In this document: positions 16,051-36,951 of the stretch, piece after piece
Layout of the letters: the number at the start of each line of letters is the position of its first letter
How positions within the stretch are numbered: the first letter of the stretch is position 1
Assembly (NCBI RefSeq): GCF_058153355.1
Contig: NZ_CM177019.1
Length of the DNA stretch: 64,000 bases
Direction: 5' to 3' (one strand)
The notes under the pieces: generated by a model
The model's database searches: none
Seen by the model: the letters and a program-made list of their open reading frames with translations, nothing else
Told to the model about the DNA's origin: nothing
Translations under genes and position numbers: made by a program

Positions 16051-17173
16051 GCTTCACCAGCAGCGTCAGCACTTCATAGTGCGCGGTGTGCGGGAACATA
16101 TCAAAAAGCTGTACCCGTTCAATACGATAACCTGACAATTCGCGGATATCTTTGGCCATCGTTTGGGCGTTACAGCTGGAGTAGATGATAAAACGCGGTG
16201 CCATCGTTGAAAGATAATCACACAGCGGTTTACCAATGCCGCGGCGCGGCGGGTTAACCAGCACCAGCTCCGGCACCTCCCCCTGAGCGGTGGCAAACTG
16301 AGTGGAGTCCAGCGCCTGAAATTGCAAACGCGTTAAGCCCAGTTCAGCAGCTGACTGCTTCGCACAGGCAATGGCCTCTGGCGCAATTTCGATCCCGGTT
16401 AACTGCATGTCAGGCGTCGCGCAGTGTAAACCAAAGCCGCCCACGCCACAGAACAGATCCCACATATGTTTAACCGGCAACTGTCGTACCCAGTCGCGCG
16501 CAGTAGCGTACAGCTGGCTGGCGACCACCGGATTAGTCTGGAAGAAACTTTGTGGACGGATCCACAGCGGCACATCGTTAAAACGCTCAGCCAGCGCCTG
16601 TTGTTCGCTCAGATAAATCTCCGTCTCCCCTTCCATAATCGCCATATGTACCGGCTGAATATTGACGGTAATAACTTTCAGCTGCGGTAATTGTTCCTGT
16701 AACCACGGCAGCGCCTTACGCATTTGCGCCAGTTTGGTATCAGAACGCAGTACAAAACGCAGCATCATGCCGCCATCGCTCTGGCTTTCAGTCAGCAGAA
16801 TGTATTTCAGTTCACCACGCTTACGCGCCACGTTGTAAGGCGTTAAACCCGCACGGGCGATAAACGGTTTTAGCGCCGCAAAAACGGGCGCAAATGAGGC
16901 TGGATAAAGCGGGCAGTCACAAAGGTCTTCCGGTGTACCATCTCGATGCAGCATACCGAGCAGTGGTTTTTCAACGCTACCACTCACCACCATTTTAGCT
17001 TTATTACGAAACCCTTGTTCCGGGCCTGACACCGGCGCACACCATTCCTCAACCGGAAAATCAGCGAGCAGATTTTTAAGATCGGCGGTTTTAGCGGAGA
17101 GTTGCTCTGGAATCGGCTACGTTATCCACTGACAGGAACGACAGCGACCCGCGTCGTAAAGTGCGCACTGCAT
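16046..17173 (-). pseudogene. rlmC: 23S rRNA (uracil747-C5)-methyltransferase RlmC interrupted by an in-frame amber codon at codon 19
   Basis: From ATG at 17171-17173 the frame reads [24 protein letters not shown]...; TAG at 17117-17119 where K-12 has Gln as I recall it; rest of the 375-codon frame intact. Confidence 0.8.
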
Positions 17174-17213
17174 ACATTGACCTTCACATCATCAGGGGCG
17201 ACGATTATACACA

Positions 17214-17702
17214 TTATTGCAACTGGAAGAACCGCCGACTGGTCGAGGGAACGAACAGTAGCAACAGGATGAGCATATCCGGCAACTTCTGCAGCATCAG
17301 GCTATGGAAGATTTCACGTTTTGATTCACCGGGAATGCTGAACAGCTCCGGATAACCATAACCCAGCGAAGCCGCCCACAAATAACTGGCGGCCGTGATT
17401 TGTGTCAACAGATACAGCCAGCGCGCCCAGCGACGCCCTTTCACCAGTGAAAACGCACACCAGATCTCAATGAAAACCAGCACAAGGCTGCTTAAAAAGA
17501 CCAGTGTTAAACTCCAGGTTTGTACGCTGCGATGAATGAACTCGCCAATACCGCGCACGCCCAGCGTATTGAAAATCATCAGCACGTCGAGGCCACGGAT
17601 CATAATAATGGCAAGCGCCGCCACCTGTACCAGCGCAGGCACATTCAGGCGAGCATGAGATGAAGATGTTTTCTTAAAAAATCCCAACGTTTCGTCTTCC
17701 AT
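17214..17702 (-). CDS. ybjO: inner membrane protein YbjO
   Basis: 162 aa hydrophobic protein; synteny. Confidence 0.85.
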   Translation of the reverse strand: MEDETLGFFKKTSSSHARLNVPALVQVAALAIIMIRGLDVLMIFNTLGVRGIGEFIHRSVQTWSLTLVFLSSLVLVFIEIWCAFSLVKGRRWARWLYLLTQITAASYLWAASLGYGYPELFSIPGESKREIFHSLMLQKLPDMLILLLLFVPSTSRRFFQLQ

Positions 17703-17761
17703 GAAAACAATGCCGCGACATGCGCGGCATTATGTAGCCAGGTTGGCAAATTTTAGTGTCT

Positions 17762-18607
17762 TCAGCCACGTCTTGCACGCTGGATATCGCGTATCCGCTG
17801 TTTTTCTGCGCGCGCCATCAGATACCAGGCGATAAATCCGACAATTCCGACTGCGCCGAGGATCAATGTTGCCAGGGCGTTGATTTCCGGATTCACCCCC
17901 ATCCGCACGCTGGAGAAGACCAGCATCGGTAACGTGGTGGCTCCTGGCCCGGAAACAAAGCTGGCAATCACCAGATCGTCGAGCGACAGAGTAAAAGCCA
18001 GTAACCAGCCAGAAATGATCGCGGGCATGATCATCGGTAGCGTAATGACGAAAAACACTTTCAGCGGCGTCGCACCGAGATCCATCGCTGCTTCTTCAAT
18101 GGAACGGTCCAGCTCCCGCAGACGCGACGAAATAACGACTGCCACATAAGCCGTACAGAAAGTGACATGCGCCAGCCAGATGGTGAGCATGCCTCGCTCC
18201 GCAGGCCAGCCGATGGCATGTGCAAGTGCGACGAATAACAACAACAGCGACAAGCCCGTGATCACATCCGGCATCACCAGCGGCGCGGTGATCATAAAGG
18301 CAAAACCATTTGATCCGCGAAACCTGCCAAAGCGCACCAGCACGACCGCCGCAATCGTCCCGAGGATCGCCGCCGCCGTCGCCGCACAGGCCGCAATTGT
18401 CAGGCTTAAACCAACCGCACTCATCATCGCGTCATCGCGCAATAATTCGCCATACCAGCGCGTTGACCAGCCGGCCCACACCGTCACCAGCTTCGAGCTG
18501 TTGAATGAATAGATCACCAGCATCAGCATTGGCGCATAGAGAAAGGTGAAGCCCAGCAGCAAAATCACAATTCGCCAGGGCGAACGAACTACCGGTAAAT
18601 TATTCAT
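17762..18607 (-). CDS. potI: putrescine ABC transporter permease PotI
   Basis: 281 aa from MNNLPVVRSPW; start overlaps potH stop. Confidence 0.93.
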   Translation of the reverse strand: MNNLPVVRSPWRIVILLLGFTFLYAPMLMLVIYSFNSSKLVTVWAGWSTRWYGELLRDDAMMSAVGLSLTIAACAATAAAILGTIAAVVLVRFGRFRGSNGFAFMITAPLVMPDVITGLSLLLLFVALAHAIGWPAERGMLTIWLAHVTFCTAYVAVVISSRLRELDRSIEEAAMDLGATPLKVFFVITLPMIMPAIISGWLLAFTLSLDDLVIASFVSGPGATTLPMLVFSSVRMGVNPEINALATLILGAVGIVGFIAWYLMARAEKQRIRDIQRARRG

Positions 18608-19557
18608 CCGTGTTCTCCCACGCTTTTTTGCTGATGCTTGTGGAACCACATTATCGGCACAATTAGCAGCAGCAACATGATGATCGCTACCGCAGAGGCC
18701 ACCGGCCAGTCGCGGTTATTGAAAAACTCCTGCCACAGCACGCGCCCGATCATGATGCTATCCGGACCGCCGAGCAGCTCCGGGATTACAAACTCGCCCA
18801 CTGCCGGGATAAAAACCAGCATTGATCCGGCAATAATCCCGCCTTTGGTCAGCGGCACGATCACAGTAAAGAACGTTTTCAGCGGTCGTGCACCGAGATC
18901 CAGTGCCGCTTCCACCAGCGAATAATCAATACGAATCAAGGCGGTGTAGATCGGCAGCACCATAAACGGTACATAGGCATAAACAATGCCAATATAAACG
19001 GCCAGGTTTGTATGCAGAATGGTCAGCGGCTGGTCGATAACCCCCAGCCACAGCAGAAAATTATTCAGCACGCCGTTATTTTTTAATATTCCCATCCAGG
19101 CATAAACGCGGATCAGAAACGAGGTCCACGACGGCAGGATCACCAGCAGCAATAAGATATTGCGGGTCGAGGGCTTACTGTGCGCCACCGCCCACGCCAG
19201 CGGATAGCCGATCAGTAAACAACAAATTGTCGAAATCGCCGCAACCTGTAACGACTGGAGATATGCATCGAAATAGAGCGGATCGTCAGTCAGTTGCAGG
19301 AAATTACCGAGATTAAGAGTGATGGAAAGTTGCCCGTCAGCCCACTCCATCAGTTCAGTATAAGGTGGAATAGCGCGCGCCATCTCCGCCAGGCTTATTT
19401 TAAAGACAATCAGAAATGGCAGCAGAAACAGTAAGATCAACCAGATATACGGCAACGCAATGATCAGTTTGCGCCCATGCTTCATTTGCAGCTGCGACAA
19501 CCACAGCTTAAATCCGCCCGGCGGTTTCGACTGGGCAGCAGGTTCAAGTGTACTCAT
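18604..19557 (-). CDS. potH: putrescine ABC transporter permease PotH
   Basis: 317 aa membrane protein; operon position. Confidence 0.93.
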   Translation of the reverse strand: MSTLEPAAQSKPPGGFKLWLSQLQMKHGRKLIIALPYIWLILLFLLPFLIVFKISLAEMARAIPPYTELMEWADGQLSITLNLGNFLQLTDDPLYFDAYLQSLQVAAISTICCLLIGYPLAWAVAHSKPSTRNILLLLVILPSWTSFLIRVYAWMGILKNNGVLNNFLLWLGVIDQPLTILHTNLAVYIGIVYAYVPFMVLPIYTALIRIDYSLVEAALDLGARPLKTFFTVIVPLTKGGIIAGSMLVFIPAVGEFVIPELLGGPDSIMIGRVLWQEFFNNRDWPVASAVAIIMLLLLIVPIMWFHKHQQKSVGEHG

Positions 19558-19566
19558 CTTTGCTCC

Positions 19567-20700
19567 TTAAACCGTCAACACCACACAGCTGTCCACTTCC
19601 CAGCACAAACGCACTTCGTCGCCCCAGGTCGGTAACCCTTTGCGATAACGATGGGCGTTTTGTAGCTGGGCGCTAATCATCTGCCCGCTTTTTAGACGAA
19701 CGTGATACACCGAAAGATCGCCGAGATAGGCAATGTGCATCACCTCCCCTACCGCGAAGTTACAACCATTGGCGGGCGGCTCCTCGCAGAGCATGATTTT
19801 TTCCGGACGCAGCGCCACATGCACCGGCACGTTATCGACCACCGAAGCATCTACATCAACTTTCAGTGGATGCACCAGCCCCGGCGAATAAAGCACCAGA
19901 CCATCTTCCTGACGCTCTTTGAGTACACCTTCAAAGACGTTTACCGAACCGATAAATTCAGCGCTATAGCGGGTGGTCGGATGCTCGTAGATCTCTTCCG
20001 GCTCGCCAATCTGGACAAATTTCCCACGATTCATAATGGCGATACGCCCCGCCATGGTCATCGCCTCTTCCTGATCGTGGGTGACCATCACACAAGTCAC
20101 ACCGACGCGCTCCAGAATATCCACCACTTCAAGCTGCATCCGGTCACGCAATTTTTTATCCAGCGCGCCCATCGGCTCGTCGAGCAGTAATAGTTTTGGG
20201 CGCTTGGCAAGGCTTCGGGCCAGCACCACACGCTGTCGCTGACCGCCGGAAAGCTGATGCGGTTTGCGTTTGGCGAACTCCTGCATATGCACCAGCCCAA
20301 GCATCTCATTGACCCGGCTGGCAATTTCTGCTTTCGGCAGCTTGTCCTGTTTCAGGCCAAAGGCGATGTTCTGCTCCACGGTCATATGCGGAAACAGCGC
20401 GTAAGACTGAAACATCATATTGATAGGGCGCAGGTAAGGCGGCACCTGTGATAAATCGACGCCATCGAGCATAATCTGCCCGGCAGAAGGTTGTTCGAAA
20501 CCTGCCAGCATACGCAGCAGCGTGGACTTGCCACAGCCGGATGCGCCCAGCAGCGCGAAGATTTCGCCTTTATAGATGGTCAGGCTGACATCATCGACCG
20601 CATGCTGACCATCGTAAGATTTAGTCAGATTACGGATTTCTAATAGCGGCGTCAGCGCCTTACGGGTTTTCGCCTGCGGGCGAGGGATAGCGTCATTCAC
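19567..20700 (-). CDS. potG: putrescine ABC transporter ATP-binding protein PotG
   Basis: GTG start at 20698-20700 gives 377 aa (MNDAIPRPQ...); Walker A GASGCGKST, signature LSGGQRQR. Confidence 0.93.
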   Translation of the reverse strand: MNDAIPRPQAKTRKALTPLLEIRNLTKSYDGQHAVDDVSLTIYKGEIFALLGASGCGKSTLLRMLAGFEQPSAGQIMLDGVDLSQVPPYLRPINMMFQSYALFPHMTVEQNIAFGLKQDKLPKAEIASRVNEMLGLVHMQEFAKRKPHQLSGGQRQRVVLARSLAKRPKLLLLDEPMGALDKKLRDRMQLEVVDILERVGVTCVMVTHDQEEAMTMAGRIAIMNRGKFVQIGEPEEIYEHPTTRYSAEFIGSVNVFEGVLKERQEDGLVLYSPGLVHPLKVDVDASVVDNVPVHVALRPEKIMLCEEPPANGCNFAVGEVMHIAYLGDLSVYHVRLKSGQMISAQLQNAHRYRKGLPTWGDEVRLCWEVDSCVVLTV

Positions 20701-20794
20701 GGCTGCTCTCCGGCATTGAATGTGTGCAAGCGCACCATAATGGTGCGAATTGCCGGCGGGTGTGGTGCGCCCGTCCGGCATCTACGACTGCGGA

Positions 20795-21907
20795 TTATTT
20801 TCCGCTCTTCACTTTGGTCCACGCGCGGGTGCGCACACGGTCGATTTTTGGATCCTGCACTTTCAGAGTGAACAACTTCGCACGAACGTCCGCCGGAGGA
20901 TAAATCCCTGGATTATCACGCACTTCCGCGCTTACCAGCGGCGTAGCTTCTTTGTTAGCATTGGCATAGAACACATGGTCGGAAATATGCGCCACCACAT
21001 CCGGGCGCAGCAGGTAATTCAGGAATTGATAGGCTTCGTCTTTATTTTTGGCATCCGCAGGCATGGCGAAGACATCAAAGAACGCCATCGCCCCTTCTTT
21101 CGGAATCGAGAACGAGACATTAACGCCATTCTTCGCTTCCTTCGCGCGGTTTGACGCCTGCCAGACATCGCCCGCCCAGCCAATAGCGACGCAGATATCG
21201 CCGTTTGCCAGGTCGTTAATGTATTGAGATGAATGGAAATAACGAATGTTCGGGCGCAGCTTTAACAGCAGATCGGTTGCCGGTCCGGTGTAATCATCTG
21301 CTTTAGTGCTGTTGGGATCTTTACCGAGATAATTCAGCACGGTAGCAAACACTTCTTCCGGTGCATCAAGGAAAGAGACGCCGCAGCTTTTCAGTTTTTC
21401 CAGATTTTCAGGTTTGAGGATCAAGTCCCAGCTATCGACGGGCGCGTTTTCGCCCAGCACCGCTTTAACTTTATCGACGTTATAACCAATCCCGGTCGTC
21501 GCCCACATATAGGGCATAGCAAATTTATTGTCGGGATCGTGTTTGGCGACCAACTTCAGCAGTTCCGGGTCGAGATTCTTCCACTCCGGCAATTTGTTTT
21601 TATCCAGTGGCTGGAAAACTCCCGCAGTCAACTGGCGCTCCAGAAAGCTGGCAGATGGAACCACCAGGTCAAAGCCGGTGCTCCCTGCCATTAATTTGCC
21701 TTCCAGTACTTCGTTAGAGTCGAAAACATCGTAGACGACTTTAATACCGGTTTCTTTTTCAAAATTGGCCACCGTGTCCGGGGCGATATAATCAGACCAG
21801 TTATAAATGTGGAGTGTTTTTTGTTCAGCCGCGAGCGTGCCGACAGAGACGGCCATCAGAGCACCCGCAACCAGACCCGATAGCCATTTTTTATTTAAGG
21901 CGGTCAT
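20795..21907 (-). CDS. potF: putrescine-binding periplasmic protein PotF
   Basis: 370 aa from MTALNKKWLSGL with signal peptide. Confidence 0.93.
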   Translation of the reverse strand: MTALNKKWLSGLVAGALMAVSVGTLAAEQKTLHIYNWSDYIAPDTVANFEKETGIKVVYDVFDSNEVLEGKLMAGSTGFDLVVPSASFLERQLTAGVFQPLDKNKLPEWKNLDPELLKLVAKHDPDNKFAMPYMWATTGIGYNVDKVKAVLGENAPVDSWDLILKPENLEKLKSCGVSFLDAPEEVFATVLNYLGKDPNSTKADDYTGPATDLLLKLRPNIRYFHSSQYINDLANGDICVAIGWAGDVWQASNRAKEAKNGVNVSFSIPKEGAMAFFDVFAMPADAKNKDEAYQFLNYLLRPDVVAHISDHVFYANANKEATPLVSAEVRDNPGIYPPADVRAKLFTLKVQDPKIDRVRTRAWTKVKSGK

Positions 21908-22257
21908 ATCTCTTTCCTTCTGAAAGTTCGTTAACAAACGAACAAAAGTTGTCACACTGAAAGATATGCAATATTCGTGCATATTTTTTATCGGCTCGGT
22001 GTAAGAAAAGAGAACTCTCTCCCGGCCAGCACTGCTCGCTATATAAAAGCATCGCAAGAATAACTTTAGCCAGGGTTTGAGACTATAGCTCGGATTAAAA
22101 AACGGTATTTAACAAATTTTTATGCGTATTTGCTCTATGTGATAAAGCCAAATCGGCACAAGAGAAGTGAAATAATCTTTAAGAAAAGGTTAAAAATAGC
22201 AGATAATTTTGCAGCACGCAGTCACTGCGGCAGCGACTGCGTACTCGAAAGGTGTTA

Positions 22258-22734
22258 TCAGTGGAGGAAATAGTTTTCGGTAACGTTGTTTTGCCCTTCA
22301 TCGTCAGTCGGTAACAGCAGTTGATGGGCATTAGCTTCAAGAATGACCATCGAAATCTGCTCTTCGCTCTGACGCACGAACCATGCAAACTGCTCATAGG
22401 TTACGCCCTGCATAACGGATAAAGACTGGCAAACCACCAGCTTTGGCAGATTATCATCCTGCATATCAAGAAATGCTTTCACGGTCAGCGAACTGGCATT
22501 GATGGCTGATAAATCCGCCGCCAGCGGCAATACGGCTGAAGGTCGGACTTCCGCCATGGCAGAAAACAGGATCGTGTTATCGATCAGATCGATTTTGGCA
22601 TCAAAGACACCGTCGAAATTCTGCATATGGGGCAGATGCAGAGCCTGACAGTTATCACATTCAAAAAAACTCATCCCCAGGTCATCGAGCCATTGACGCA
22701 ACGTATCCAGACCAGGAACGACCAGCGATGTCAT
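22258..22734 (-). CDS. ybjN: putative sensory transduction regulator YbjN
   Basis: 158 aa from MTSLVVPGLD; synteny. Confidence 0.85.
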   Translation of the reverse strand: MTSLVVPGLDTLRQWLDDLGMSFFECDNCQALHLPHMQNFDGVFDAKIDLIDNTILFSAMAEVRPSAVLPLAADLSAINASSLTVKAFLDMQDDNLPKLVVCQSLSVMQGVTYEQFAWFVRQSEEQISMVILEANAHQLLLPTDDEGQNNVTENYFLH

Positions 22735-22821
22735 AATTTTGTACAACCTCTTCCGATAAAAAGACCGGCACAGCTTACGCAAAAAGCGCAGGCAAAACCA
22801 TGATCAGTAATGTGATTGCGA

Positions 22822-23724
22822 CTAACCACCCGTTTTCAGGCAATATTCTGTCGTGGCGTTGCGTTCGATCCAACGGATCATTTTACCCGCGATGTCGATA
22901 CCGGTGGTTTTTTCTATTCCTTCCAGCCCCGGCGACGCATTCACCTCCATCACCAATGGCCCGCGATTAGCACGCAGAATATCCACACCAGCAACGTCCA
23001 GCGCCATCGTTCGCGCGGCTTTTATCGCGATTTCACGCTCCTGTGGTGTGATACTGGCGACGCTTGCCGCGCCTCCACGATGCAAATTGGAACGAAAATC
23101 GCCCTCTTTCGCCCGCCGTTCAATCGCAGCGACCACTTCATCGCCAACAACCAGACAGCGGATATCGCACCCTTGCGCCTCTTTGATATATTCCTGCACC
23201 AAAATATGCGCGTTCAGACCGCGGAAAGCGTCAATCACGCTTTCCGCCGCCTGACGCGTCTCCGCCAGCACGACACCAATTCCCTGCGTACCTTCAACCA
23301 GCTTAACCACCAGCGGCGCACCACCGACCATGTCGATTAAATCGCTGGTATCATCCGGCGAATGCGCAATGCCCGTGACAGGCAGGTCGATGCCCTGACG
23401 CGCCAGCAGCTGCATGGAACGCAACTTGTCACGCGCCCGGGCAATGGCGACCGACTCATTGAGCGGATAGCTCCCCAGCATTTCAAACTGACGTAGCGCC
23501 GCCGTCCCATAAAAGGTAATGGCGGTGCCAATACGCGGGATCACAGCGTCAAAATGGGGTAACTTGCGGCCTTTGTAGTGAATAGAAGACGCCGCAGGAT
23601 TTATGTTCATGTAGCAAGAAAGCGGATCAAGAATTTCAACCAGGTGACCACGCTGTATAGCGGCTTCACGCAGCCGCTTACACGAATAGAGCGTTCCATC
23701 CCGGGACAATATGGCAATTTTCAC
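22822..23724 (-). CDS. rimK: ribosomal protein S6 L-glutamate ligase RimK (ATP-grasp)
   Basis: 300 aa ORF recognised as RimK. Confidence 0.93.
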
Positions 23725-23784
23725 CCTGCACCTCTCTGTCAGACCTGGTCAAAAGCCCGCGTATCATACATCGGCGTGGCGGTT

Positions 23785-24507
23785 TTACCGCGTAGCCCAA
23801 CCCTGTTTGTGCAAATAATCCAGTATAAATGGGCGGCTTTCTTTAATGATTGTTCGGCGGATATGATCGCTCCAGGTATCCCGGCGATTATTGCTGCCAC
23901 GGGTGAGGTAATATTCCGCCAGCTGCTCGTCATACTGCGCCAGTGCGTCTTTATCCAGCGGTTGATAGCTGTTTTCATGCACCAAAATGGAAGCCGGTAA
24001 ACGCGGCTTAAGATCCGGATTATCCGCAGGCCAGCCAAGGCACAGCCCAAACAGCGGCAGAACATGCTGCGGTAATTTCAGCAGTTCCGTCACCGCTTCA
24101 ATATTATTGCGCAGGCCGCCGATATATACCCCGCCCAATCCCAGCGATTCCGCTGCGGTTAACGCATTCTGCGCCATCATTGCCGTATCAACGACACCGA
24201 GCAACAGTTGTTCCGCCAGGCCAAGTTGTGCATCCGGACAGATCTGTAAATGGCGGTTAAAGTCGGCACAGAACACCCAAAACTCCGCCGCTTTCGCTAC
24301 GTGTTTTTGCCCGCCGGTCAGCGTCACCAGTTCATCACGTAACGCTTTGTCGGTAATGCGAATAATGCTACTGCACTGCAAAAAACTGGAACTGGACGTC
24401 GCACGGGCGCTGTTAATAATCGCCTCACGCTGCGCTTCGGAAATGGGTTCATCAGTGAAATGGCGAATGGAGCGATGGCCACAAATAAGTTCAATGGTTG
24501 GCGTCAT
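23785..24507 (-). CDS. nfsA: oxygen-insensitive NADPH nitroreductase NfsA
   Basis: 240 aa ORF recognised as NfsA. Confidence 0.93.
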   Translation of the reverse strand: MTPTIELICGHRSIRHFTDEPISEAQREAIINSARATSSSSFLQCSSIIRITDKALRDELVTLTGGQKHVAKAAEFWVFCADFNRHLQICPDAQLGLAEQLLLGVVDTAMMAQNALTAAESLGLGGVYIGGLRNNIEAVTELLKLPQHVLPLFGLCLGWPADNPDLKPRLPASILVHENSYQPLDKDALAQYDEQLAEYYLTRGSNNRRDTWSDHIRRTIIKESRPFILDYLHKQGWATR

Positions 24508-24778
24508 TATCTTTTTCTCTTTCTGAACGTGAATATTGCGGTGGACGGTTCATCAGCTGTGGGGCAAGACGTTTTGCCACCTGAAGAATAACCACCACCG
24601 CAGCAGGAAGCATGAGCAAAACACCGAGAAAAATCATCAGAATCTGCACCTCTGGCCGAGAAAATGGCTCAGGCAGCGACAGGGAGCCGCTTACCGACAG
24701 CAGCGCCACCGCCAGCAACATCATTCCGATAAATTCCAGTATCAACACGCTTTTAGGCAATTTACCGATCGCGCGCAT
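24491..24778 (-). CDS. ybjC: small inner membrane protein YbjC
   Basis: 95 aa hydrophobic ORF upstream of and overlapping nfsA. Confidence 0.8.
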   Translation of the reverse strand: MRAIGKLPKSVLILEFIGMMLLAVALLSVSGSLSLPEPFSRPEVQILMIFLGVLLMLPAAVVVILQVAKRLAPQLMNRPPQYSRSEREKDNDANH

Positions 24779-24937
24779 ACGCTTCCCTCTGCAAAGTGAG
24801 CCTTCAGTCTAAAACTTTTCACTGTATTGTGTTTAACAGTTATAGCTTTTAGCAATTAATGCAACAGGTTAAACCTACTTTCAGCGAATACATTTTAGCG
24901 TGATCATTACAGGCATAAGTCTATGAGGAGAGAAATA

Positions 24938-25195
24938 ATGCAAACCGTTATTTTTGGTCGTCCGGGTTGCCCTTACTGTGTGCGTGCAAAAGATCTGGCT
25001 GAGAAATTGAGCAATGAACGCGATGATTTTCAGTATCAGTATGTAGATATTCGTGCGGAAGGGATCACTAAAGAAGATCTACAACAAAAGGCAGGTAAAC
25101 CCGTAGAAACCGTGCCGCAGATTTTTGTCGATCAGCAACATATCGGCGGCTATACCGATTTTGCTGCATGGGTGAAAGAGAATCTGGACGCCTGA
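24938..25195 (+). CDS. grxA: glutaredoxin 1
   Basis: 85 aa from MQTVIFGRPGCPYC, CPYC active site. Confidence 0.93.
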   Translation: MQTVIFGRPGCPYCVRAKDLAEKLSNERDDFQYQYVDIRAEGITKEDLQQKAGKPVETVPQIFVDQQHIGGYTDFAAWVKENLDA

Positions 25196-25204
25196 TCGTC
25201 TGAC

Positions 25205-25237
25205 AAGCCCTCGTGTTGAGGGCTTCATTAATTTTTT
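25205..25237. terminator. hairpin terminator shared by convergent grxA and ybjM
   Basis: AAGCCCTC-GTGTT-GAGGGCTT hairpin followed by T-rich tract. Confidence 0.5.
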
Positions 25238-25602
25238 CTGTGCTGTGATTTAAACAAACTGCTGATAAATAAGAAACACAATGCCCCCAGCGCACACCAG
25301 AACACCGCACTTAATAACCATGCCAGCTCTTGCCAGAATGAGCGTGTTGGTGAAAAAAACAGCCGCATTATGAGCATCGAACAGGGTGCCGCCAGCATTG
25401 CGCCAAATAGAGGTTTCAGGACTTCTCTACGCTGTGAAAAGAAGCTGGCAACCGCTCCAGGAAGAATGAAAAACAGCAAGCCAATTTCAGGATGCCCGGC
25501 AGCCCGAAAAGCGCCTTTCATGTGCGTCGCCAGAAAAAGGCACACCACAATGAAGAGGACAAAACAGCAGATTGCCCCCGCCCAACGTTGTTTATGTTTC
25601 AC
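25228..25602 (-). CDS. ybjM: inner membrane protein YbjM
   Basis: 124 aa hydrophobic ORF; synteny. Confidence 0.8.
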   Translation of the reverse strand: MKHKQRWAGAICCFVLFIVVCLFLATHMKGAFRAAGHPEIGLLFFILPGAVASFFSQRREVLKPLFGAMLAAPCSMLIMRLFFSPTRSFWQELAWLLSAVFWCALGALCFLFISSLFKSQHRKN

Positions 25603-27599: not shown

Positions 27600-27630
27600 A
27601 GAACTTTTCCTCAGGGCATCAGTCTTAATT
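27600..27630 (+). promoter_or_regulatory. putative sigma-E promoter of rybB
   Basis: GAACTTT (-35-like) and GTCTTAA (-10-like) just upstream of the RybB 5' end. Confidence 0.45.
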
Positions 27631-27633
27631 AGT

Positions 27634-27713: not shown

Positions 27714-27731
27714 TTATCTAAAATTTATCTA

Positions 27732-28268
27732 CTACCCTGCAACCCTCTCAACCATCCTCAAAATCTCCTCGCGCGATAGCGGCTTACGGTCGGTGACAAA
27801 ATGCAGCGTCATCCCCTCAATAAACGCATCAAGCGCGCGGGCGGTTCCGGGTTCAAACCATTGTTCGAGCGTTTGCTGACTGCGCTGCATCCAGTTTTGC
27901 ATTACCGTTTTTAATAGCGGTTTTCGGCTAGCCAGCGCGTAGAGCTGGTACATCAGCTCCATGTTATCCGGCGTTGCAACCTGTGAGCTGTAGATCATAT
28001 CGGTGATAGCCTGGCATGCGCCCGGAGCATCACTAACATCGCTAAAAAATGCCTGATATTGCCGGGACATGATCTCAGTAAAACTGCTGAACGCCTCCAG
28101 CAACAACTCATCAATTCCTGAAAAATAGTAGGTCATCGACCCCAACGGTACCCCGGCAAGGGTAGCAATTTTGCGGTGCGTAACGGCATGTATTCCGTAA
28201 AGTTTCACCGCCTCCAGCGTGGCCTGGATAATTTTTTCTCGCCGTTGCGGATCGTTAGCGCGACGCAT
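27732..28268 (-). CDS. rcdA: TetR-family transcriptional regulator RcdA (YbjK)
   Basis: 178 aa from [13 protein letters not shown]; TetR-type helix-turn-helix. Confidence 0.85.
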
Positions 28269-28351
28269 GTCATTTCCTCTCTCTGCAATTGTGTACAAAT
28301 GTACACAACCTTGCTAATGTTGTCTTCCCTCTTCTTATTTTGACGTGATCT

Positions 28352-29560
28352 ATGACCGTAAATTCTTCACGTAATGCATTGAAACGCCGAACCTGGGCGC
28401 TGTTTATGTTCTTCTTTTTGCCGGGCCTGTTAATGGCGTCCTGGGCAACTCGTACACCTGCTATCCGCGATATTCTTTCTGTTTCGATCGCTGAAATGGG
28501 CGGAGTCCTCTTTGGTCTGTCGATCGGTTCAATGAGCGGTATTCTCTGCTCGGCGTGGTTAGTGAAACGCTTTGGGACGCGGAATGTCATCCAGGTCACG
28601 ATGTCCTGCGCATTGATCGGGATGATGATATTAAGTCTGGCACTCTGGCTGACATCGCCCCTGCTCTTTGCCGTTGGTCTCGGCGTCTTTGGGGCAAGTT
28701 TTGGTTCTGCGGAAGTGGCGATAAACGTTGAAGGTGCTGCCGTTGAGCGAGAAATGAATAAGACGGTTTTGCCGATGATGCACGGTTTTTATAGCCTGGG
28801 CACGCTGGCAGGCGCTGGTGTCGGGATGGCACTGACGGCCTTTGGCGTTCCGGCAACGGTGCACATTTTATTGGCGGCGCTGGTAGGCATCGCGCCTATT
28901 TATATCGCCATTCAGGCAATCCCTGACGGTACGGGCAAAAATGCTGCCGATGGCACCCAGCATGGTGAAAAAGGCGTACCTTTTTATCGGGATATCCAGT
29001 TGCTGCTGATTGGTGTTGTGGTACTGGCGATGGCCTTTGCCGAAGGTTCTGCCAACGACTGGTTACCCTTATTAATGGTTGACGGTCACGGTTTTAGCCC
29101 TACTTCCGGCTCGCTGATTTATGCCGGTTTTACCCTGGGGATGACTGTTGGACGCTTTACCGGCGGTTGGTTCATCGACCGTTATAGTCGCGTTGCCGTG
29201 GTTCGGGCCAGTGCACTGATGGGAGCGTTGGGTATTGGGCTGATTATTTTTGTCGATAGCGCCTGGGTCGCTGGGGTGTCTGTTGTACTTTGGGGACTGG
29301 GGGCCTCGCTGGGCTTCCCGCTGACCATTTCTGCCGCCAGCGATACCGGCCCCGATGCACCGACCCGCGTCAGCGTAGTGGCGACGACCGGTTATCTGGC
29401 TTTCCTCGTCGGGCCGCCGCTGCTGGGCTATCTCGGCGAACATTATGGATTACGTAGTGCAATGCTGGTTGTACTGGCGCTGGTTATTCTTGCGGCTATT
29501 GTCGCGAAAGCCGTCGCCAAACCCAATACCAAAACGCAGACGGCGATGGAGAATAGTTGA
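28352..29560 (+). CDS. ybjJ: MFS-family inner membrane transporter YbjJ
   Basis: 402 aa, 12-TM-like hydrophobic profile; synteny. Confidence 0.85.
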
Positions 29561-30375
29561 TGAGCATTAAATTAATTGCGGTTGACATGGATGGTACTTT
29601 CTTAAGCGATCAAAAAACCTATAACCGTGAGCGGTTTATGGCTCAGTATCAGCAGATGAAAGCACAAGGCATTCGCTTTGTGGTCGCCAGCGGGAATCAA
29701 TATTATCAGTTAATCTCTTTCTTCCCTGAAATTGCTAATGAAATTGCCTTTGTGGCTGAAAACGGCGGTTGGGTTGTAAGCGAAGGCAAAGATGTTTTTA
29801 ATGGCGAGCTGTCGAAGGATGCGTTTGCTACTGTGGTGGAACATTTACTGACGCGCCCAGAAGTGGAAATTATTGCCTGCGGAAAAAATAGCGCCTATAC
29901 CCTCAAAAAATATGACGATGCCATGAAAACGGTAGCGGAAATGTATTATCACCGTCTGGAATACGTCGATAACTTTGATAATTTAGAAGATATCTTCTTT
30001 AAGTTTGGCCTGAATCTTTCCGATGAACTGATTCCACAAGTGCAAAAAGCATTACATGAGACCATCGGCGATATTATGGTGCCGGTCCACACCGGCAACG
30101 GCAGCATCGATCTGATTATCCCCGGCGTACATAAAGCGAATGGCCTGCGCCAACTTCAGAAATTATGGGGAATAGACGACAGCGAAGTGGTGGTCTTCGG
30201 CGATGGTGGTAACGATATTGAGATGCTGCGTCAGGCAGGCTTTAGTTTTGCGATGGAAAATGCTGGCAGCGCGGTCGTCGCAGCGGCAAAATACCGGGCA
30301 GGCTCCAATAATCATGAAGGTGTACTGGATGTGATCGATAAAGTTCTTAAACACGAAGCGCCTTTTGATCAATAA
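29560..30375 (+). CDS. ybjI: HAD-superfamily (Cof-type) phosphatase YbjI
   Basis: 271 aa; HAD motif I VDMDGTFL; paralogous to ybiV at 55767. Confidence 0.85.
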   Translation: MSIKLIAVDMDGTFLSDQKTYNRERFMAQYQQMKAQGIRFVVASGNQYYQLISFFPEIANEIAFVAENGGWVVSEGKDVFNGELSKDAFATVVEHLLTRPEVEIIACGKNSAYTLKKYDDAMKTVAEMYYHRLEYVDNFDNLEDIFFKFGLNLSDELIPQVQKALHETIGDIMVPVHTGNGSIDLIIPGVHKANGLRQLQKLWGIDDSEVVVFGDGGNDIEMLRQAGFSFAMENAGSAVVAAAKYRAGSNNHEGVLDVIDKVLKHEAPFDQ

Positions 30376-30460
30376 AAACGGTAGCACGCCCGGCAACACA
30401 AAGCCTGAATGAAGGCTGCATAATTCGCAGAAATTAACCCGCTGCATTATTTCAGGCGAA

Positions 30461-30745
30461 ATGATTATGAGAAATTGTCTACTGTTGGGCGCGCTTTTAA
30501 TGGGCTTTACTGGTGTGGCAATGGCGCAAAGTGTCACCGTCGATGTGCCGAGTGGATACAAAGTGGTTGTGGTCCCTGATTCAGTCAGCGTTCCACAAGC
30601 AGTCAGCGTCGCGACTGTGCCGCAAACCGTCTATGTGGCTCCTGCGCCAGCTCCGGCTTACCGCCCGCATCCGTATGTTCGCCATCTTGCCAGCGTAGGT
30701 GAAGGGATGGTTATCGAACACCAGATTGATGACCATCACCATTAA
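30461..30745 (+). CDS. ybjH: uncharacterised secreted protein YbjH
   Basis: 94 aa with signal peptide; synteny. Confidence 0.75.
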   Translation: MIMRNCLLLGALLMGFTGVAMAQSVTVDVPSGYKVVVVPDSVSVPQAVSVATVPQTVYVAPAPAPAYRPHPYVRHLASVGEGMVIEHQIDDHHH

Positions 30746-30751
30746 TTTGAA

Positions 30752-30788
30752 AATGCCTGATTGCTTTGCGCAACCAGGCATTTTTTTA
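30752..30788 (+). terminator. intrinsic terminator after ybjH
   Basis: GCCTGATTGC-loop-GCAACCAGGC hairpin followed by TTTTTTT. Confidence 0.55.
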
Positions 30789-32018
30789 CCCTTCGTGCGA
30801 ATTACCCATCTGTTTATCTTTTAAAAAGATAACCATCAGCAGCAGCCACAAAATCCCGTTGGCAAGGTTGAAGAGATTAAACAGGCCGTTGCCCCCATTC
30901 AGCCAGGCATGTTTGCTGATTTCAATACCGACGGTAAAAATAAGCATTTGCAACATTCCCATCGCCGCAGAAACCGTACCTTTACTCATATCGCTGGCAA
31001 ACAGGGTCAATCGCACCAATCCCGCATTCGCCAGGCCAATACCGAAAGCATAAATACTTAACCCAGCGGTCATCCACAAATACGCGTGCGATGAGATAAC
31101 CGTTGCCGCAGCAGCGACCAACAGGCCAATCATAATTGGCCAGCCGCCCATAATAATCAATGAACGTACGGTGCGGCGCGAGGTCAGACGCGCTAGCAGC
31201 AAGTTACCCGCAATTAATGCCCCGAAAATAGGCACTTGCAGCAAGCCATATTCATAGCTACTCAACTGCTCGCCGGTAATGATGATAATCGGCGACTGGG
31301 CGATCCACGCCAGCAACGGCAGGCTAACAAAACCCAGCGCCAGTGCCCCTGCCACAAAGCGACCGTTCTTCAGCACCAGCTTATAGTCACGACCGAGTTC
31401 TTTCAGCGACAGTTTCTCGCCTATACGCGTGGCGGTTTCAGGCATGGCTCGTTGCAGACCGAAAAAGGAGATCGCTGCCAATGCGGCAAACAAGACAAAC
31501 ATCCCCTCCCAGGGCAGCACATGGATCCACGCCGCGCCCACCAGCGGACCGAGTAGCGGCGCAATCAGCGCCACGTTCGCCATCAGCGCGGTGATCTTGA
31601 TACAAACCGCCTCTTCGAAGGACTCCTGAATTGCAGCGTAACCCACAGCGCCAATGAAACAGAGGCTTATGCCCTGCAAGAAGCGCAACAGCGTGAATTG
31701 TTCAATGTTTTGCGCCAGTAATATCGCCAGACAAGTGATGATAAACCACACTACCCCCGCCAGCATCACCGGACGGCGACCAATACGATCCGACAGTGGT
31801 CCCAGCAGCCACTGTAAAAACATCCCGCCCGCCAGATACGCGGTCATCGAAGTAGGAACCCAATCAATGCCCGCCTGATACTGCTCCACCACGGCCAACA
31901 TGCCGGGTTGAATCATATCGTTGCCGATATAGGTTGAAAATTCGTAAAGCACCAGACAGAGAGGGAAAAGTAACGCCTGACGTCCAAGCCTGGCACCGGA
32001 AGCTAATCTATTTTGCAT
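30786..32018 (-). CDS. mdfA: multidrug efflux MFS transporter MdfA (Cmr)
   Basis: 410 aa from [20 protein letters not shown]. Confidence 0.92.
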
Positions 32019-32303
32019 GCAATTTCTTCGCCAATAATAATCGCGCAAAGTTTAATAAAAGCGCAGCTAACGAGAAAGCGAATTTTGTAGCTGAAACTTC
32101 GGTTAAGCACATTCTTACATTATTGCGAGTATAGCTACGCTTTCTTTAAGTTTTATTTAACCTATGCTCGTTACAATCAGCCACCGTAAACAGGGCCGCT
32201 TGAGGGAAATAAGACGATGCCGCTTTACCCAGTTTAACCTGCACTTTATTCTCAACGACTTGCCTGTATTGGCTCCCTTTTAATCACTTTGCGTCGGGAA
32301 GTT

Positions 32304-32900
32304 ATGCTGGAAAATTTGAATCTCTCTCTATTCTCTCTTATTAACGCGACGCCAGACTCGGCTCCGTGGATGATCTCGTTGGCGATTTTTATTGCTAAAG
32401 ATTTGATTACCGTGGTGCCGCTGCTGGCCGCAGTACTTTGGTTGTGGGGGCTTACAGCACAACGGCAACTGGTGATAAAAATCGCAATCGCGCTGGCGGT
32501 CAGCCTGTTTGTGTCCTGGACGATGGGGCATCTTTTTCCGCACGACCGACCCTTTGTCGAAAATATCGGCTATAACTTCCTGCATCATGCGGCGGATGAC
32601 TCATTCCCGAGCGATCACGGTACGGTGATTTTCACCTTTGCACTGGCATTTTTATGCTGGCATCGCCTGTGGTCCGGCTCACTTTTAATGGTGCTGGCCG
32701 TCGTCATTGCCTGGTCGCGCGTTTATCTTGGCGTCCACTGGCCGCTGGATATGCTCGGTGGATTGCTGGCAGGTATGATTGGCTGCCTTAGCGCCCAGAT
32801 TATCTGGCAAGCGATGGGGCATAAACTCTATCAACGTCTGCAATCGTGGTATCGTTTCTGTTTTGCATTACCGATCCGCAAAGGCTGGGTGCGTGACTGA
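32304..32900 (+). CDS. ybjG: undecaprenyl-pyrophosphate phosphatase YbjG (PAP2 family)
   Basis: 198 aa from MLENLNLSLF; PAP2 motifs (PSDHG, SRVYLGVHWP). Confidence 0.88.
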   Translation: MLENLNLSLFSLINATPDSAPWMISLAIFIAKDLITVVPLLAAVLWLWGLTAQRQLVIKIAIALAVSLFVSWTMGHLFPHDRPFVENIGYNFLHHAADDSFPSDHGTVIFTFALAFLCWHRLWSGSLLMVLAVVIAWSRVYLGVHWPLDMLGGLLAGMIGCLSAQIIWQAMGHKLYQRLQSWYRFCFALPIRKGWVRD

Positions 32901-32957
32901 TCTCTGCTAAAAAGTGTAGTATTGAGCGGCTCGCTTCAATAACTATTCAGAGGGATT

Positions 32958-33716
32958 ATGGAAACTCGTCGCGAAGAGCGTATCGGGCAGCTGCTGCAAG
33001 AATTAAAACGCAGCGATAAGTTACATCTTAAAGACGCCGCCGCCCTGCTTGGGGTTTCGGAGATGACGATTCGTCGCGATCTGAACAACCACAGTGCGCC
33101 CGTCGTTTTGCTAGGCGGCTATATTGTTCTGGAACCGCGCAGCGCCAGCCATTACCTGTTAAGCGATCAAAAATCCCGCCTGGTGGAAGAAAAACGCCGA
33201 GCGGCAAAACTGGCTGCGACGCTGGTAGAACCCGATCAGACCCTCTTTTTTGACTGTGGCACCACCACACCGTGGATTATTGAAGCGATTGATAATGAAA
33301 TCCCTTTCACCGCCGTTTGTTATTCGCTAAATACCTTTCTGGCACTGAAAGAGAAACCTCATTGCCGCGCGTTTCTTTGCGGTGGTGAATTTCACGCCAG
33401 CAACGCCATTTTCAAACCCATCGATTTTCAGCAAACGCTGAATAATTTTTGCCCGGATATCGCTTTTTATTCCGCGGCGGGGGTGCATGTCAGTAAGGGC
33501 GCTACCTGTTTTAATCTTGAAGAGTTGCCGGTAAAACACTGGGCCATGTCGATGGCGCAAAAGCATGTGCTGGTTGTCGACCACAGTAAATTTGGCAAGG
33601 TGCGTCCGGCACGCATGGGTGACCTGAAACGCTTTGATATTGTGGTGAGCGATTGTTGCCCGGAAGATGAGTATGTGAAGTACGCGCAGACGCAGCGTAT
33701 TAAGTTGATGTATTAA
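32958..33716 (+). CDS. deoR: deoxyribose operon repressor DeoR
   Basis: 252 aa, N-terminal HTH; synteny. Confidence 0.93.
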   Translation: METRREERIGQLLQELKRSDKLHLKDAAALLGVSEMTIRRDLNNHSAPVVLLGGYIVLEPRSASHYLLSDQKSRLVEEKRRAAKLAATLVEPDQTLFFDCGTTTPWIIEAIDNEIPFTAVCYSLNTFLALKEKPHCRAFLCGGEFHASNAIFKPIDFQQTLNNFCPDIAFYSAAGVHVSKGATCFNLEELPVKHWAMSMAQKHVLVVDHSKFGKVRPARMGDLKRFDIVVSDCCPEDEYVKYAQTQRIKLMY

Positions 33717-33763
33717 TGATGCATAACCGGATGACGTTTCCACGCCATCCGGTTATCACAAAA

Positions 33764-34966
33764 TTATGAGAACCAGCTGCCGAACCACTGATGGAATTTC
33801 ATCATCACGAAATCCCACATCCGACCAAAGAATCCACCCTCTTCCACATTTTCCATCACGATCAGCGGGCGCTGTTCAATGGATTTACCGTTAAGCTGGA
33901 AATCAATGGTGCCGACAACCTGACCTTTTTTCAGCGGTGCGGTAAGCTGCGGTTCCGTTAATGTATAACTCGCTTTCAGGTTTTTCAGCTGCCCACGCGG
34001 TATGGTCACGGATCCCGCTTCGCCTGCCCCGAGATTCACTTCGCTCTTATCACCAAACCAGACGCGCTGAGTCACAAAGGTGGCATCAGGTTTAATTGGC
34101 GTCACGGTTTCAAAGAAGCGGAAACCCCAGGTCAATAATTTCTCAGACTCATTAAAACGGATACGGTCAGTTTTCGCCCCCAGCACTACGGAGATTAAAC
34201 GCATATCGCCCTGGGTAGCCGAAGCAACCAGATTATATCCCGCGCCTGCCGTGGTTCCTGTCTTCATGCCATCAACATTCAGATTGCTGCTCCATAGCAG
34301 ACGGTTACGGTTAGGCTGACGAATTTTGTTGAAGGTGAACTCTTTCTCTTTATGAATGGCGTACTCTTCTGGCACATCGTGAATCAGTGCTTTACCCAGC
34401 AATGCCATATCGCGCGCGGTACTGAACTGCCCCGGCGCATCCAGACCGTGCACCGTCTGGAAGGTCGTGTTGGTCAGCCCCAGTTTTTTGGCATAACCAT
34501 TCATCAAACCAATAAATGACTCCTGGCTCCCGGCAACGTAATCAGCCAGCGCAATACAGGCGTCATTACCGGACTGGATAATCACGCCTTTGTTCAAGTC
34601 TGCCACCGAAACCTGATCGCCTGGTTTGAGGAACATTACCGACGAACCACGCAGTGCCGGGTTTCCCGTCGCCCAGGCATCTTTACCGACCGTCACCATA
34701 TCGGTGAGTTTAATCTTATCGGCCTTAAGCGCCTGCCCAACCACATAGCTGGTCATGATTTTAGTCAGGCTCGCGGGGTCCAGTTTCTCATCCGCATTGC
34801 CTTCTGCCAGCACTTTACCGCTGGCGTAATCCATTAAAATCCATGCACGCGCATCCACGCTCGGCGCGTCAACGGTTTGTTCCGCCGCGAATGCCGTTGG
34901 GGCAAAAAGGAATAAAAATGCAGAACCCGCTGCAAGACCACGAAGGAGAGAGGAGTATTGCGTCAT
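33764..34966 (-). CDS. dacC: D-alanyl-D-alanine carboxypeptidase DacC (PBP6)
   Basis: 400 aa from [11 protein letters not shown] with signal peptide; SxxK (SLTK) active site. Confidence 0.93.
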
Positions 34967-35212
34967 AAATGCCACCCGAGTATCCATTCAAAAAAAATAC
35001 GTTATATCGCCGTATGATAAGTTCGGTGATTAATAACGCACACACAAACTTAAAGAAACCGTAAGTTGGTAAAGTTTTTAAAGTTTATGCAATATCCTGC
35101 CGCTTCGCTGCTTCTGCCGTCATTTTTTTGCCAGCTGTTGCTTAAAAGTTAACTTTACTTCACCATCAATGTCCTGTTCAGCCTGTGGCTGCCTGTCGGA
35201 AAAGGGGTAAGT

Positions 35213-35839
35213 ATGATTACGCTGTGGGGTCGGAATAATTCAACCAACGTAAAAAAAGTATTGCTGATGCTCGAAGAACTGGAACTACCTTATGAGCAAA
35301 TTCTCGCGGGCCGTGAGTTTGGGGTAAACCACGATGCTGATTTTCTGGCGATGAACCCTAACGGGCTGGTGCCGTTGTTGCGTGACGACGAAAGTGATCT
35401 CATCCTTTGGGAATCAAATGCCATTGTCCGCTATCTGGCGGCACAGTATGGGCAAAACCGCCTGTGGATCGACTCACCGGCACGCCGTGCAGAAGCGGAA
35501 AAATGGATGGACTGGGCAAACCAGACGCTCAGTAATGCCCATCGCGGGATCCTGATGGGATTAGTCAGAACACCACCGGAAGAGCGCGATCAGGCCGCCA
35601 TTGATGCCAGTTGCAAAGAGTGCGACGCCCTGTTTGCCCTGCTCGATGCGGAACTGGCAAAAGTAAAATGGTTCTCTGGCGACGAGTTTGGTGTGGGCGA
35701 TATCGCTATCGCTCCGTTCATCTACAATTTATTTAACGTTGGCCTGACCTGGACACCGCGTCCAAATCTGCAACGCTGGTATCAGCAACTCACTGAACGC
35801 CCCGCAGTGCGCAAAGTGGTGATGATCCCCGTTAGCTAA
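35213..35839 (+). CDS. gstB: glutathione S-transferase GstB (YliJ)
   Basis: 208 aa GST-fold protein; synteny. Confidence 0.88.
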
Positions 35840-36951
35840 TTGCGTGGGCTAACTTTAAGTAATTCCCCACTGGACTCGTCGGTGAGAACGTATAAATAAC
35901 CGTCGGGTCCAGTGCGAACATCACGAATTCGCTGCCCTCTGTCCGTTAAAATACGGCCATCTTCTGTCACTTTGTCGCCGTTGACGCTCATCACAATGAC
36001 ATCTTTATCTTTCAGCGCGCCAATAAATAATTTTTGCTGCCACTGGGGGAATTTATCGCTGTTATAGAAGGCCATGCCGCTCACGGCGGGCGAATCTTTC
36101 CAGTAAAAAACAGGTTGCTCGGTCCCGGCGACGATCTCCCCTTTCGCTTCCGGTATCTTAAATCCCGAATAGTTGATTCCCCAGGTTGCCAGCGGCCAGC
36201 CGTAGTTTTTGCCTTTTTGCGGGATATTAATTTCATCACCACCGCGGGGGCCATGTTCATTTAGCCACAGTGCATTACTCCAGGGATTCATCGCCATTCC
36301 TTGCGGGTTACGAATACCATAAGACCAGATCTCGGCGCGTGCATCGGATCTCCTGGCAAAAGGATTATCATCCGGGATCTCGCCCTAGTCAGTAAGACGC
36401 ACCAGTTTGCCCTGTAATTTATCCAGATCCTGCGCCGTCGGGCGCTGATTGTTTTCGCCCAGAGCAATAAAAAGATAACCTTTACCGTCGAATACCAGCC
36501 GCCCGCCAAAATGGTTGCCGGTAGACAGTTTTGGCATCTGGCGAAAAATGGTGCGGAAGTCGGTCACTTTTGAGAGATCATCACTTAAACGACCATACCC
36601 CACGGCAGTTCCGGCTTTGCCATCATCGCCAACTTCGGAATAGCTTAACCAGATGCGGCGCGACTGGGCAAAATCAGGTGCTAAAGCCACATCCATTAAG
36701 CCGCCCTGCCCGTGCGCCCAAACTTCCGGCACTCCGGAAAGCGGCGCAGATAATCCTTTTCCTGCTTGCCAGCGACGTAACTCACCGCCGCGCAGGGTGA
36801 TTAACATGCCGTGATTATCAGGTAAAAAGGCCAGCGCCCAAGGGTGAGCGAGTTTGTCTTGCAGTACCTCGACATTTACCGTTGCAGGAGCCGCCCAGAG
36901 AGCGGAAGAAAGACAAATAAGGGGCACAGAGAAAAAGAATTGTCGATGCAT
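35836..36951 (-). pseudogene. yliI: soluble aldose sugar dehydrogenase YliI interrupted by an in-frame amber codon (codon 189 of 371)
   Basis: ORFs 36385-36951 and 35836-36297 are in the same frame; frame reads ...KLVRLTD*GEIPDDNPF... with TAG at 36385-36387; total 372 codons equals full-length yliI. Confidence 0.8.

Follow-up and report, generated by a model that had tools for sequence, protein, structure and literature searches.

Some lineages of Escherichia coli K-12 stably carry rpoS(Am), in which codon 33 is changed from CAG to TAG, and these lineages also carry supE44. In lacI, Coulondre, Miller, Farabaugh and Gilbert reportedly described in 1978 amber hotspots that arise by changes of CCAGG to CTAGG. 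CCWGG sites are hotspots of G:C>A:T mutation at the methylated base (PMC13250602), and the suppression of amber codons by natural tRNAs has been reported to occur in nature (PMC11848022). E. coli chromosomes contain 45–95 pseudogenes each, or about 1.5% of their genes (Touchon et al. 2009, PMC2617782).

We found one in-frame amber codon in each of two genes, rlmC and yliI, within a 64-kb stretch of E. coli DNA (hereafter the window), and we compared the two alleles with these systems. The yliI change is exactly like the lacI hotspots, as the inner cytosine of a CCAGG site, the base methylated by Dcm, is replaced by thymine and an in-frame CAG becomes TAG. The original prediction on the window had missed this point. 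On the other hand, the rlmC change lies outside any Dcm site. Both alleles are similar to rpoS(Am) in that a Gln codon CAG was changed to a stably carried TAG, so that suppression with insertion of Gln would yield the wild-type protein. However, the suppressor allele is documented in K-12, whereas it is hypothetical in the present lineage. The closest likeness is to the young, strain-specific pseudogenes of E. coli (PMC2617782), in which one inactivating point mutation has hit a non-essential gene that is intact in all other respects and is confined to one clone. We see no substantive difference from these, and among the complete genomes that could be compared (only 18 for yliI), neither allele was found outside this clone.

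Amber codons and truncated products

The features are listed in Table 1. Both codons are CAG (Gln) in K-12 MG1655, as shown by gap-free alignments of rlmC (1128 nt, 95.2% identity) and yliI (1116 nt, 95.3% identity). They are also CAG in R32_14_1F and 2020CK-00188, the closest two complete genomes, in which rlmC and yliI are annotated as intact. Both genes of the window thus have an in-frame stop where their orthologues have a sense codon. Each change is C>T on the coding (minus) strand, or G>A on the plus strand of the window. The original prediction, which had asked for a comparison with close relatives, described both stops as CAG-to-TAG changes on the minus strand and as G-to-A changes on the plus strand; the three reference genomes bear this out.

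Table 1. Positions of the rlmC and yliI features in the window
Feature	Position	Strand	Remarks
rlmC pseudogene (23S rRNA m5U747 methyltransferase)	16046..17173	-	Colinear with K-12 b0859 over all 1128 nt; single in-frame amber codon
rlmC amber codon 19 (TAG)	17117..17119	-	Read as 17119-17117 in the translation of 16046-17182(-); ancestral CAG; context ACG-CAG-CC, not a Dcm site
rlmC residual 328-aa ORF	16046..17032	-	Starts with GTG (codon 48); product reported by gene callers
yliI pseudogene (PQQ-dependent aldose sugar dehydrogenase)	35836..36951	-	Colinear with K-12 b0837 over all 1116 nt; single in-frame amber codon
yliI amber codon 189 (TAG)	36385..36387	-	Read as 36387-36385 in the translation of 35836-36951(-), ...KLVRLTD*GEIPDD...; ancestral CAG
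Former Dcm site in yliI	36384..36388	-	CCAGG in relatives (GAC-CAG-GGC), CTAGG in the window
yliI residual C-terminal ORF	35836..36297	-	153 aa in the ORF list; 151-aa fragment from the Logan gene caller

Apart from the stop codons, the two reading frames are well preserved. With TAG read as Gln, RlmC matches the NCBIfam equivalog TIGR02085 (RlmC) with 731 bits over the full profile (positions 1–374), and YliI matches PDB 2G8S over residues 21–370 (E = 6e-238). Since the only private missense change besides the stop is L151M in rlmC and D35A in yliI, and neither gene has an indel, the lesions look young.

The RlmC chain would end after 18 of its 375 residues. Missing from the 328-aa residual ORF are the first 47 residues, among them Cys3, Cys11 and Cys14, which are putative Fe–S ligands. 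Because a product restarted at GTG codon 48 would be without these N-terminal cysteines, and judging from the early truncation, m5U747 is probably not made in this clone. YliI would be truncated at residue 188 of 371, with loss of the C-terminal half of the β-propeller, and this truncation suggests that the aldose dehydrogenase activity would be lost. No polar effect is expected from either amber codon, because both rlmC and yliI are followed by a convergent gene (artJ and gstB).

We then investigated the other genes of the window. All 53 other K-12 orthologues lying fully within it align without gaps, have their start codons and terminal stops, and contain no internal stop, in agreement with the original description of the remaining genes as intact. 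ybjM is one codon shorter than in K-12 and has the same length in R32_14_1F and 2020CK-00188.

A natural clone with both alleles

The window comes from a wild E. coli that has diverged to about 96% identity with K-12 and 98–99% identity with the nearest complete genomes and that carries copies of IS621. Both TAG codons are also present in the NCBI assembly GCA_015332025.1, which has no protein recorded for rlmC or yliI and is identical (100%) to the window over 5.6 kb around yliI, TAG included. In the Logan assemblies, the 328-aa residual product of rlmC and the 188-aa N-terminal product of yliI are found in three contigs each; the two truncated products occur together on contig SRR28786219_69 and on two similar contigs. 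Exactly five assemblies contain the alleles of GstB and PotG that are specific to the clone. The members differ by their own SNPs, an nfsA frameshift and IS621 insertions. The alleles belong to a small natural E. coli clone of five assemblies. Among its members are GCA_015332025.1 and GCA_043012465.1, and the clone is also represented by the read sets SRR31441161, SRR8656992 and SRR28786219.

These data bear on two other explanations. Single-base differences in any one assembly can be errors, but the same TAGs were recovered from an independent NCBI assembly and from Logan assemblies of separate read sets. We rejected a sequencing or assembly error at one or both codons, which is extremely improbable. 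The original prediction had also allowed for deliberate amber alleles. Such codons would have been engineered on purpose, for suppression or genetic-code-expansion work. The shared codon type, and nothing else, points in this direction. The targets would be two unrelated, obscure and non-essential genes in a wild, IS621-carrying backbone, and the five independently sequenced assemblies share the alleles while differing by natural SNPs and the nfsA frameshift. Deliberate engineering is therefore hardly credible and unsupported by the clone data.

We also looked for the two haplotypes outside the clone. A search of about 5,400 complete E. coli genomes gave no exact match to either of the 61-mers centred on the two TAGs. 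The closest hits differ by one mismatch. In all, 5,420 records matched for rlmC and 18 for yliI, and the yliI result covers only the 18 genomes with flanks similar enough to be aligned by megablast. RlmC and YliI haplotypes with Q19 and Q189 restored have no record in the protein collection searched, and no sister lineage with the same haplotypes but CAG was found in that collection; thus, the mutations can be dated no further than as shared by the clone. Both stop codons could be useful for recognising this clone.

Mutation spectrum, Dcm sites and strand

The window contains 225 private substitutions, of which 113 (50%) are G:C>A:T, 28% are A:T>G:C and 22% are transversions. They cluster in recombination tracts, and those in coding sequence are mostly synonymous, as expected under normal purifying selection. 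The differences within the clone are few and mixed in type (G>T, G>A, A>G and single-base indels). This spectrum is natural and not mutagen-like.

C>T nonsense mutations would be in excess after chemical mutagenesis of the EMS or NTG type or in a past or present G:C>A:T mutator (for example, one lacking functional ung, vsr or mismatch repair), and the original prediction had raised a mutagenised lineage. This idea is consistent with both nonsense changes being G:C>A:T, with G:C>A:T being the largest class of private changes, and with the bias of G>A over C>T on the plus strand (68 to 45, p = 0.04), which is the direction of both amber changes. However, G:C>A:T makes up only half of the private changes, below the dominance of about 90% taken as the criterion, and a normal natural spectrum that is clustered in recombination tracts and mostly synonymous in coding sequence, together with few and mixed within-clone differences, argues against it. 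Dcm-methylated positions are also without significant enrichment: 2 of 178 are changed in the window, compared to 111 of 20,862 other G/C positions (odds ratio 2.1, p = 0.25). The same counts do not demonstrate a Dcm hotspot effect in this lineage, which is a difference from the lacI hotspots and a point against the Dcm route proposed below for yliI. Mutagenesis or a mutator thus lacks support here, and we consider it very unlikely.

The alleles very probably arose through two C>T transitions that occurred spontaneously, independently and fairly recently, and they represent ordinary strain-specific pseudogenes in dispensable genes. Each transition would have turned a Gln codon CAG into an amber codon and would then have been inherited clonally. 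In yliI, deamination of 5-methylcytosine at the inner C of CCAGG would give thymine directly, and a T:G mismatch missed by very-short-patch repair may have been fixed as CTAGG. The dcm and vsr genes lie outside the window. In rlmC, an ordinary C>T transition without a Dcm site would suffice. The GC skew is negative on the plus strand of the window, and the minus strand is therefore the leading strand. rlmC and yliI are both read from this leading, G-rich strand, so that both changes are C>T on the leading, non-transcribed strand, in the direction favoured for cytosine deamination. This direction also prevails among the private changes of the window (68 to 45, p = 0.04).

Probable coincidence and possible amber suppression

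We then asked whether the match between the two mutations exceeds chance, and found that it does not. CAG>TAG accounts for 8% of all nonsense paths if rates are uniform and for 20% if transitions are favoured fourfold; the lineage's own spectrum raises this share to 25%, and a tenfold Dcm hotspot to as much as 35%. With the lineage's own spectrum (25–35%), CAG>TAG is the most probable single nonsense path. The probability that both mutations are CAG>TAG is thus about 0.06–0.12. Requiring the same strand as well roughly halves this value, as the same strand has a probability of about 0.5, with 30 of the 56 genes and 270 of the 493 CAG codons on the minus strand. At a pseudogene frequency of 1.5%, about 0.84 pseudogenes are expected among the 56 genes of the window, and two or more of any type have a probability of about 0.2, which is not unusual. 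For nonsense types alone, the probability of two or more in 56 genes is about 0.04–0.06, a mild local excess that counts against plain coincidence. The matching mutation type and strand are most likely coincidental, as codon usage and mutation bias both raise the odds of such a match. This favours coincidence, the first option offered by the original prediction.

The original prediction had also raised a suppressor-carrying lineage. In this explanation, the clone would have a natural amber suppressor, for example a supE-like allele of glnV or glnX with the anticodon CUA or a tRNA-CUA borne by a mobile element, that reads both TAGs as Gln. RlmC and YliI would then be at least partly functional, and amber alleles would be tolerated and could accumulate. 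Both stops replace Gln, so a Gln-inserting supE-type suppressor would give back precisely the original residue. Each ORF is otherwise intact except for one further private missense change, and the alleles have been kept in all detectable members while the clone diversified; these observations are also compatible with suppression. However, young lesions account for the preserved ORFs just as well, and CAG>TAG is the likeliest nonsense path anyway. No tRNA gene lies within the window, which hence gives no positive evidence for a suppressor. The natural TAG terminators (7 of 55 genes) are all the same as in K-12, none having become TAA or TGA, although this comparison has low power for a recent suppressor.

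The clone was also followed beyond the window. A look-up of the PoxB allele gave about 9 kb more, with six further genes and no in-frame stop, and a look-up of the YbiR allele returned only non-clone strains (98–99% identity). In-frame TAG codons are thus found in 2 of the 55 K-12 orthologues in the window, with none in the 53 others, and in none of the six clone genes outside it. The sequence covered is about 73 kb, in a genome of roughly 5 Mb, and within it the absence of more such codons is a weak, indirect sign against suppression. In R32_14_1F, we located asnB, a tRNA cluster (Met-Leu-Gln-Gln-Met-Gln-Gln) and ubiF, which mark the glnV/glnX region. Eight contigs encode the UbiF allele of R32_14_1F, apparently from R32-like strains, and none of the three listed is from the clone. 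We consider suppression very unlikely. If it were true, the clone would be a wild E. coli lineage with constitutive, at least partial, amber read-through, and a moderately interesting case for studies of translation fidelity and of how stop-codon usage evolves.

Two independent spontaneous transitions remain the preferred explanation. Before a matched pair of CAG>TAG changes is read as a sign of mutagenesis, suppression or engineering, one should allow for codon usage, transition bias, Dcm sites and strand asymmetry. As ordinary young pseudogenes, the rlmC and yliI alleles in themselves matter little.

Amber codons in rlmC and yliI

The 64-kb window is E. coli chromosomal DNA spanning hcr to mntR, and its counterpart in the reference K-12 MG1655 lies at ~853-912 kb in reverse orientation. 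Identity to the window is ~96% for K-12 and 98-99% for the nearest complete genomes, R32_14_1F (from goat) and 2020CK-00188 (from human), varying along the window in a mosaic manner. The genes for the 23S rRNA m5U747 methyltransferase (rlmC) and the PQQ-dependent aldose sugar dehydrogenase (yliI) align to K-12 with zero gaps and have TAG at codons 19 and 189, respectively. The original prediction that both stops arose from CAG is borne out by K-12, R32_14_1F and 2020CK-00188, which all have CAG at both codons; rlmC and yliI are annotated as intact in the latter two. Since these relatives have CAG, each site underwent C>T on the coding strand, and the coordinates place both genes on the minus strand, so that the change is G>A on the plus strand, as had been proposed.

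If the TAGs are decoded as Gln, rlmC yields a product that scores 731 bits against the whole profile of the RlmC equivalog TIGR02085, and residues 21-370 of the yliI product match the solved structure of the E. coli enzyme (2G8S). Thus, both stops lie inside conserved coding sequence. Besides the stop, each gene has one missense change private to the window's lineage (L151M in rlmC and D35A in yliI) and no indels, which fits young lesions. The rest of the genes were also correctly described as intact: all 53 other K-12 orthologues lying wholly inside the window have a start codon and a terminal stop, with no indels or internal stops. ybjM ends one codon before its K-12 counterpart, with TAA where K-12 has CAG. 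This length (124 aa) is common to R32_14_1F and 2020CK-00188, and the early end is therefore neither confined to the window's clone nor a lesion.

Positions of the amber codons and other features in the window
Feature	Position	Strand	Description
rlmC	16046-17173	minus	from translation (23 residues, not shown)
rlmC amber TAG	17119-17117	minus	from translation
yliI	35836-36951	minus	from translation, ...KLVRLTD*GEIPDD
yliI amber TAG	36387-36385	minus	from translation
IS621 copy 1	13749-15026		artM-artJ intergenic spacer; IS110-family, 326-aa transposase
IS621 copy 2	58154-59435		ybiU-ybiT intergenic spacer; IS110-family, 326-aa transposase
Pentapeptide-repeat gene	7691-9475	minus	
nfsA	23785-24507	minus	
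ybjM	25225-25602		
ybiU	56734-57993		

A natural clone carrying both alleles

An exact copy of the 188-aa N-terminal fragment of YliI is on record, as is one of the 328-aa residual ORF of RlmC; the two share a single contig (SRR28786219_69) of the Logan read-set assemblies, and two more similar Logan contigs carry these products. Both TAGs are also present in NCBI assembly GCA_015332025.1, which is 99.99-100% identical to the window over the rlmC and yliI regions and has no protein recorded for either gene. Clone-specific alleles of PotG and GstB (T19M) each occur in three Logan assemblies, two NCBI assemblies and no others, and further members (GCA_043012465.1, SRR8656992 and SRR31441161) were recognised at the window's left end. 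Relative to the window, the clone genomes show a few SNPs, one change in homopolymer length and a 1-bp nfsA deletion. They represent separate isolates of a single clone, and both ambers are older than their divergence. The 61-mers centred on each TAG had no exact match in complete E. coli genomes (5,420 records matched for rlmC and 18 for yliI), and the Gln-restored RlmC and YliI proteins, when looked up, were absent from the record. Deliberately made amber alleles, as had been suggested, are implausible, since the backbone is wild, bears IS621 and was sampled five times independently.

The two IS621 copies, whose transposases agree with the annotation 'IS110-like element IS621 family transposase', have identical transposase ORFs and identical aligned 300-nt ends. 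Neither site is occupied in K-12, the first copy is likewise absent from R32_14_1F and 2020CK-00188, and no gene is interrupted by either copy. In draft and Logan assemblies of the clone, contigs apparently end at the first copy.

nfsA is intact in the window; a 1-bp deletion at 24036 in GCA_015332025.1 and SRR28786219 causes a frameshift at about codon 158. Nitrofuran resistance usually begins with loss of nfsA, and the frameshift suggests that drug selection has acted within the clone. Between ybjQ and ybjP, a 2.6-kb island absent from K-12 bears a pentapeptide-repeat-annotated gene that is annotated as frameshifted in 2020CK-00188. At the 5' end of this gene, the window has A7 in a poly-A/T homopolymer (~9468-9474) and other members of the clone have A8. 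This change alters the called N-terminus (589, 594 or 608 aa) and may represent phase variation.

Mutational origin and the matching pair

The 225 substitutions private to the window's lineage are bunched at 6001-8000 (41), 16001-22000 (65) and 44001-46000 (33), indicating recombination tracts with donors in unsampled lineages. rlmC lies within one SNP-dense block, and its TAG may have been imported with the tract or may be later in origin. The ybiU ORF is intact (419 aa) and shows 74% nucleotide and 81% amino acid identity to K-12, against 93-97% for neighbouring genes; it appears to be a strongly diverged allele acquired by recombination. R32_14_1F, the closest complete relative, has two gene clusters between cydA and sucD (3295000-3344999), a hut operon for histidine utilisation and one for methylaspartate mutase/ammonia-lyase. 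To our knowledge, K-12 has neither at this position, and these clusters may be useful for placing the lineage.

The ancestral yliI site, GAC-CAG-GGC, includes the Dcm site CCAGG, in which the change hit the inner cytosine, the base methylated by Dcm. Deamination of 5-methylcytosine to thymine would convert CCAGG to CTAGG, the textbook source of lacI amber hotspots. Sites of the form CCWGG are an established hotspot for G:C>A:T changes (PMC13250602). The rlmC context, ACG-CAG-CC, contains no Dcm site, so this change is an ordinary transition. The GC skew of the plus strand is negative, so the leading strand is the one from which both genes are read. On this strand, which is also the non-transcribed one, both changes are C>T. 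The private substitutions share this asymmetry (plus-strand G>A 68 vs C>T 45, p = 0.04). The proposed mutagenised lineage, or a mutator, is at odds with their spectrum, as only 50% are G:C>A:T, with 28% A:T>G:C and 22% transversions. Moreover, they bunch in recombination tracts, are mostly synonymous within genes and are not significantly enriched at Dcm positions.

In the 56 genes of the window, 5,925 routes lead to a stop by a single-base change, all of which we enumerated. CAG>TAG makes up 8% of routes at uniform rates, 20% if transitions are four times as likely, 25% under the lineage's private-substitution spectrum (which makes it more probable than any other route) and 30-35% when the 31 CAG codons in a C-CAG-G context receive a 5-10-fold hotspot factor. 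At shares of 25-35%, the probability that both stops are CAG>TAG is 0.06-0.12, and that of any shared route 0.13-0.17; the shared strand adds a factor of ~0.5. The match in route and strand is unremarkable for a post hoc pattern, in line with the coincidence that the original prediction had allowed for. An E. coli chromosome carries 45-95 pseudogenes, ~1.5% of genes (PMC2617782). About 0.84 are thus expected in 56 genes, with a probability of ~0.2 for two or more (~0.04-0.06 for nonsense lesions alone), and two is within the normal range.

A suppressor tRNA in the clone is judged very improbable. The window itself has no tRNA gene. The signs are indirect and neutral to negative: all seven natural TAG terminators are kept, and in sequence of the clone next to the window six more genes are free of in-frame stops. 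The data are best explained by rlmC and yliI being ordinary amber pseudogenes that arose independently and are specific to the clone; yliI was hit at a Dcm hotspot, and both stops came about by the likeliest of the mutational routes.

Predicted consequences

The genes following rlmC and yliI (artJ and gstB, respectively) are convergent, so polar effects would not be expected. RlmC would end after 18 residues, and if translation restarted at GTG codon 48, the protein would lack Cys3, Cys11 and Cys14, presumably Fe-S cluster ligands. YliI would lack the C-terminal half of its propeller.
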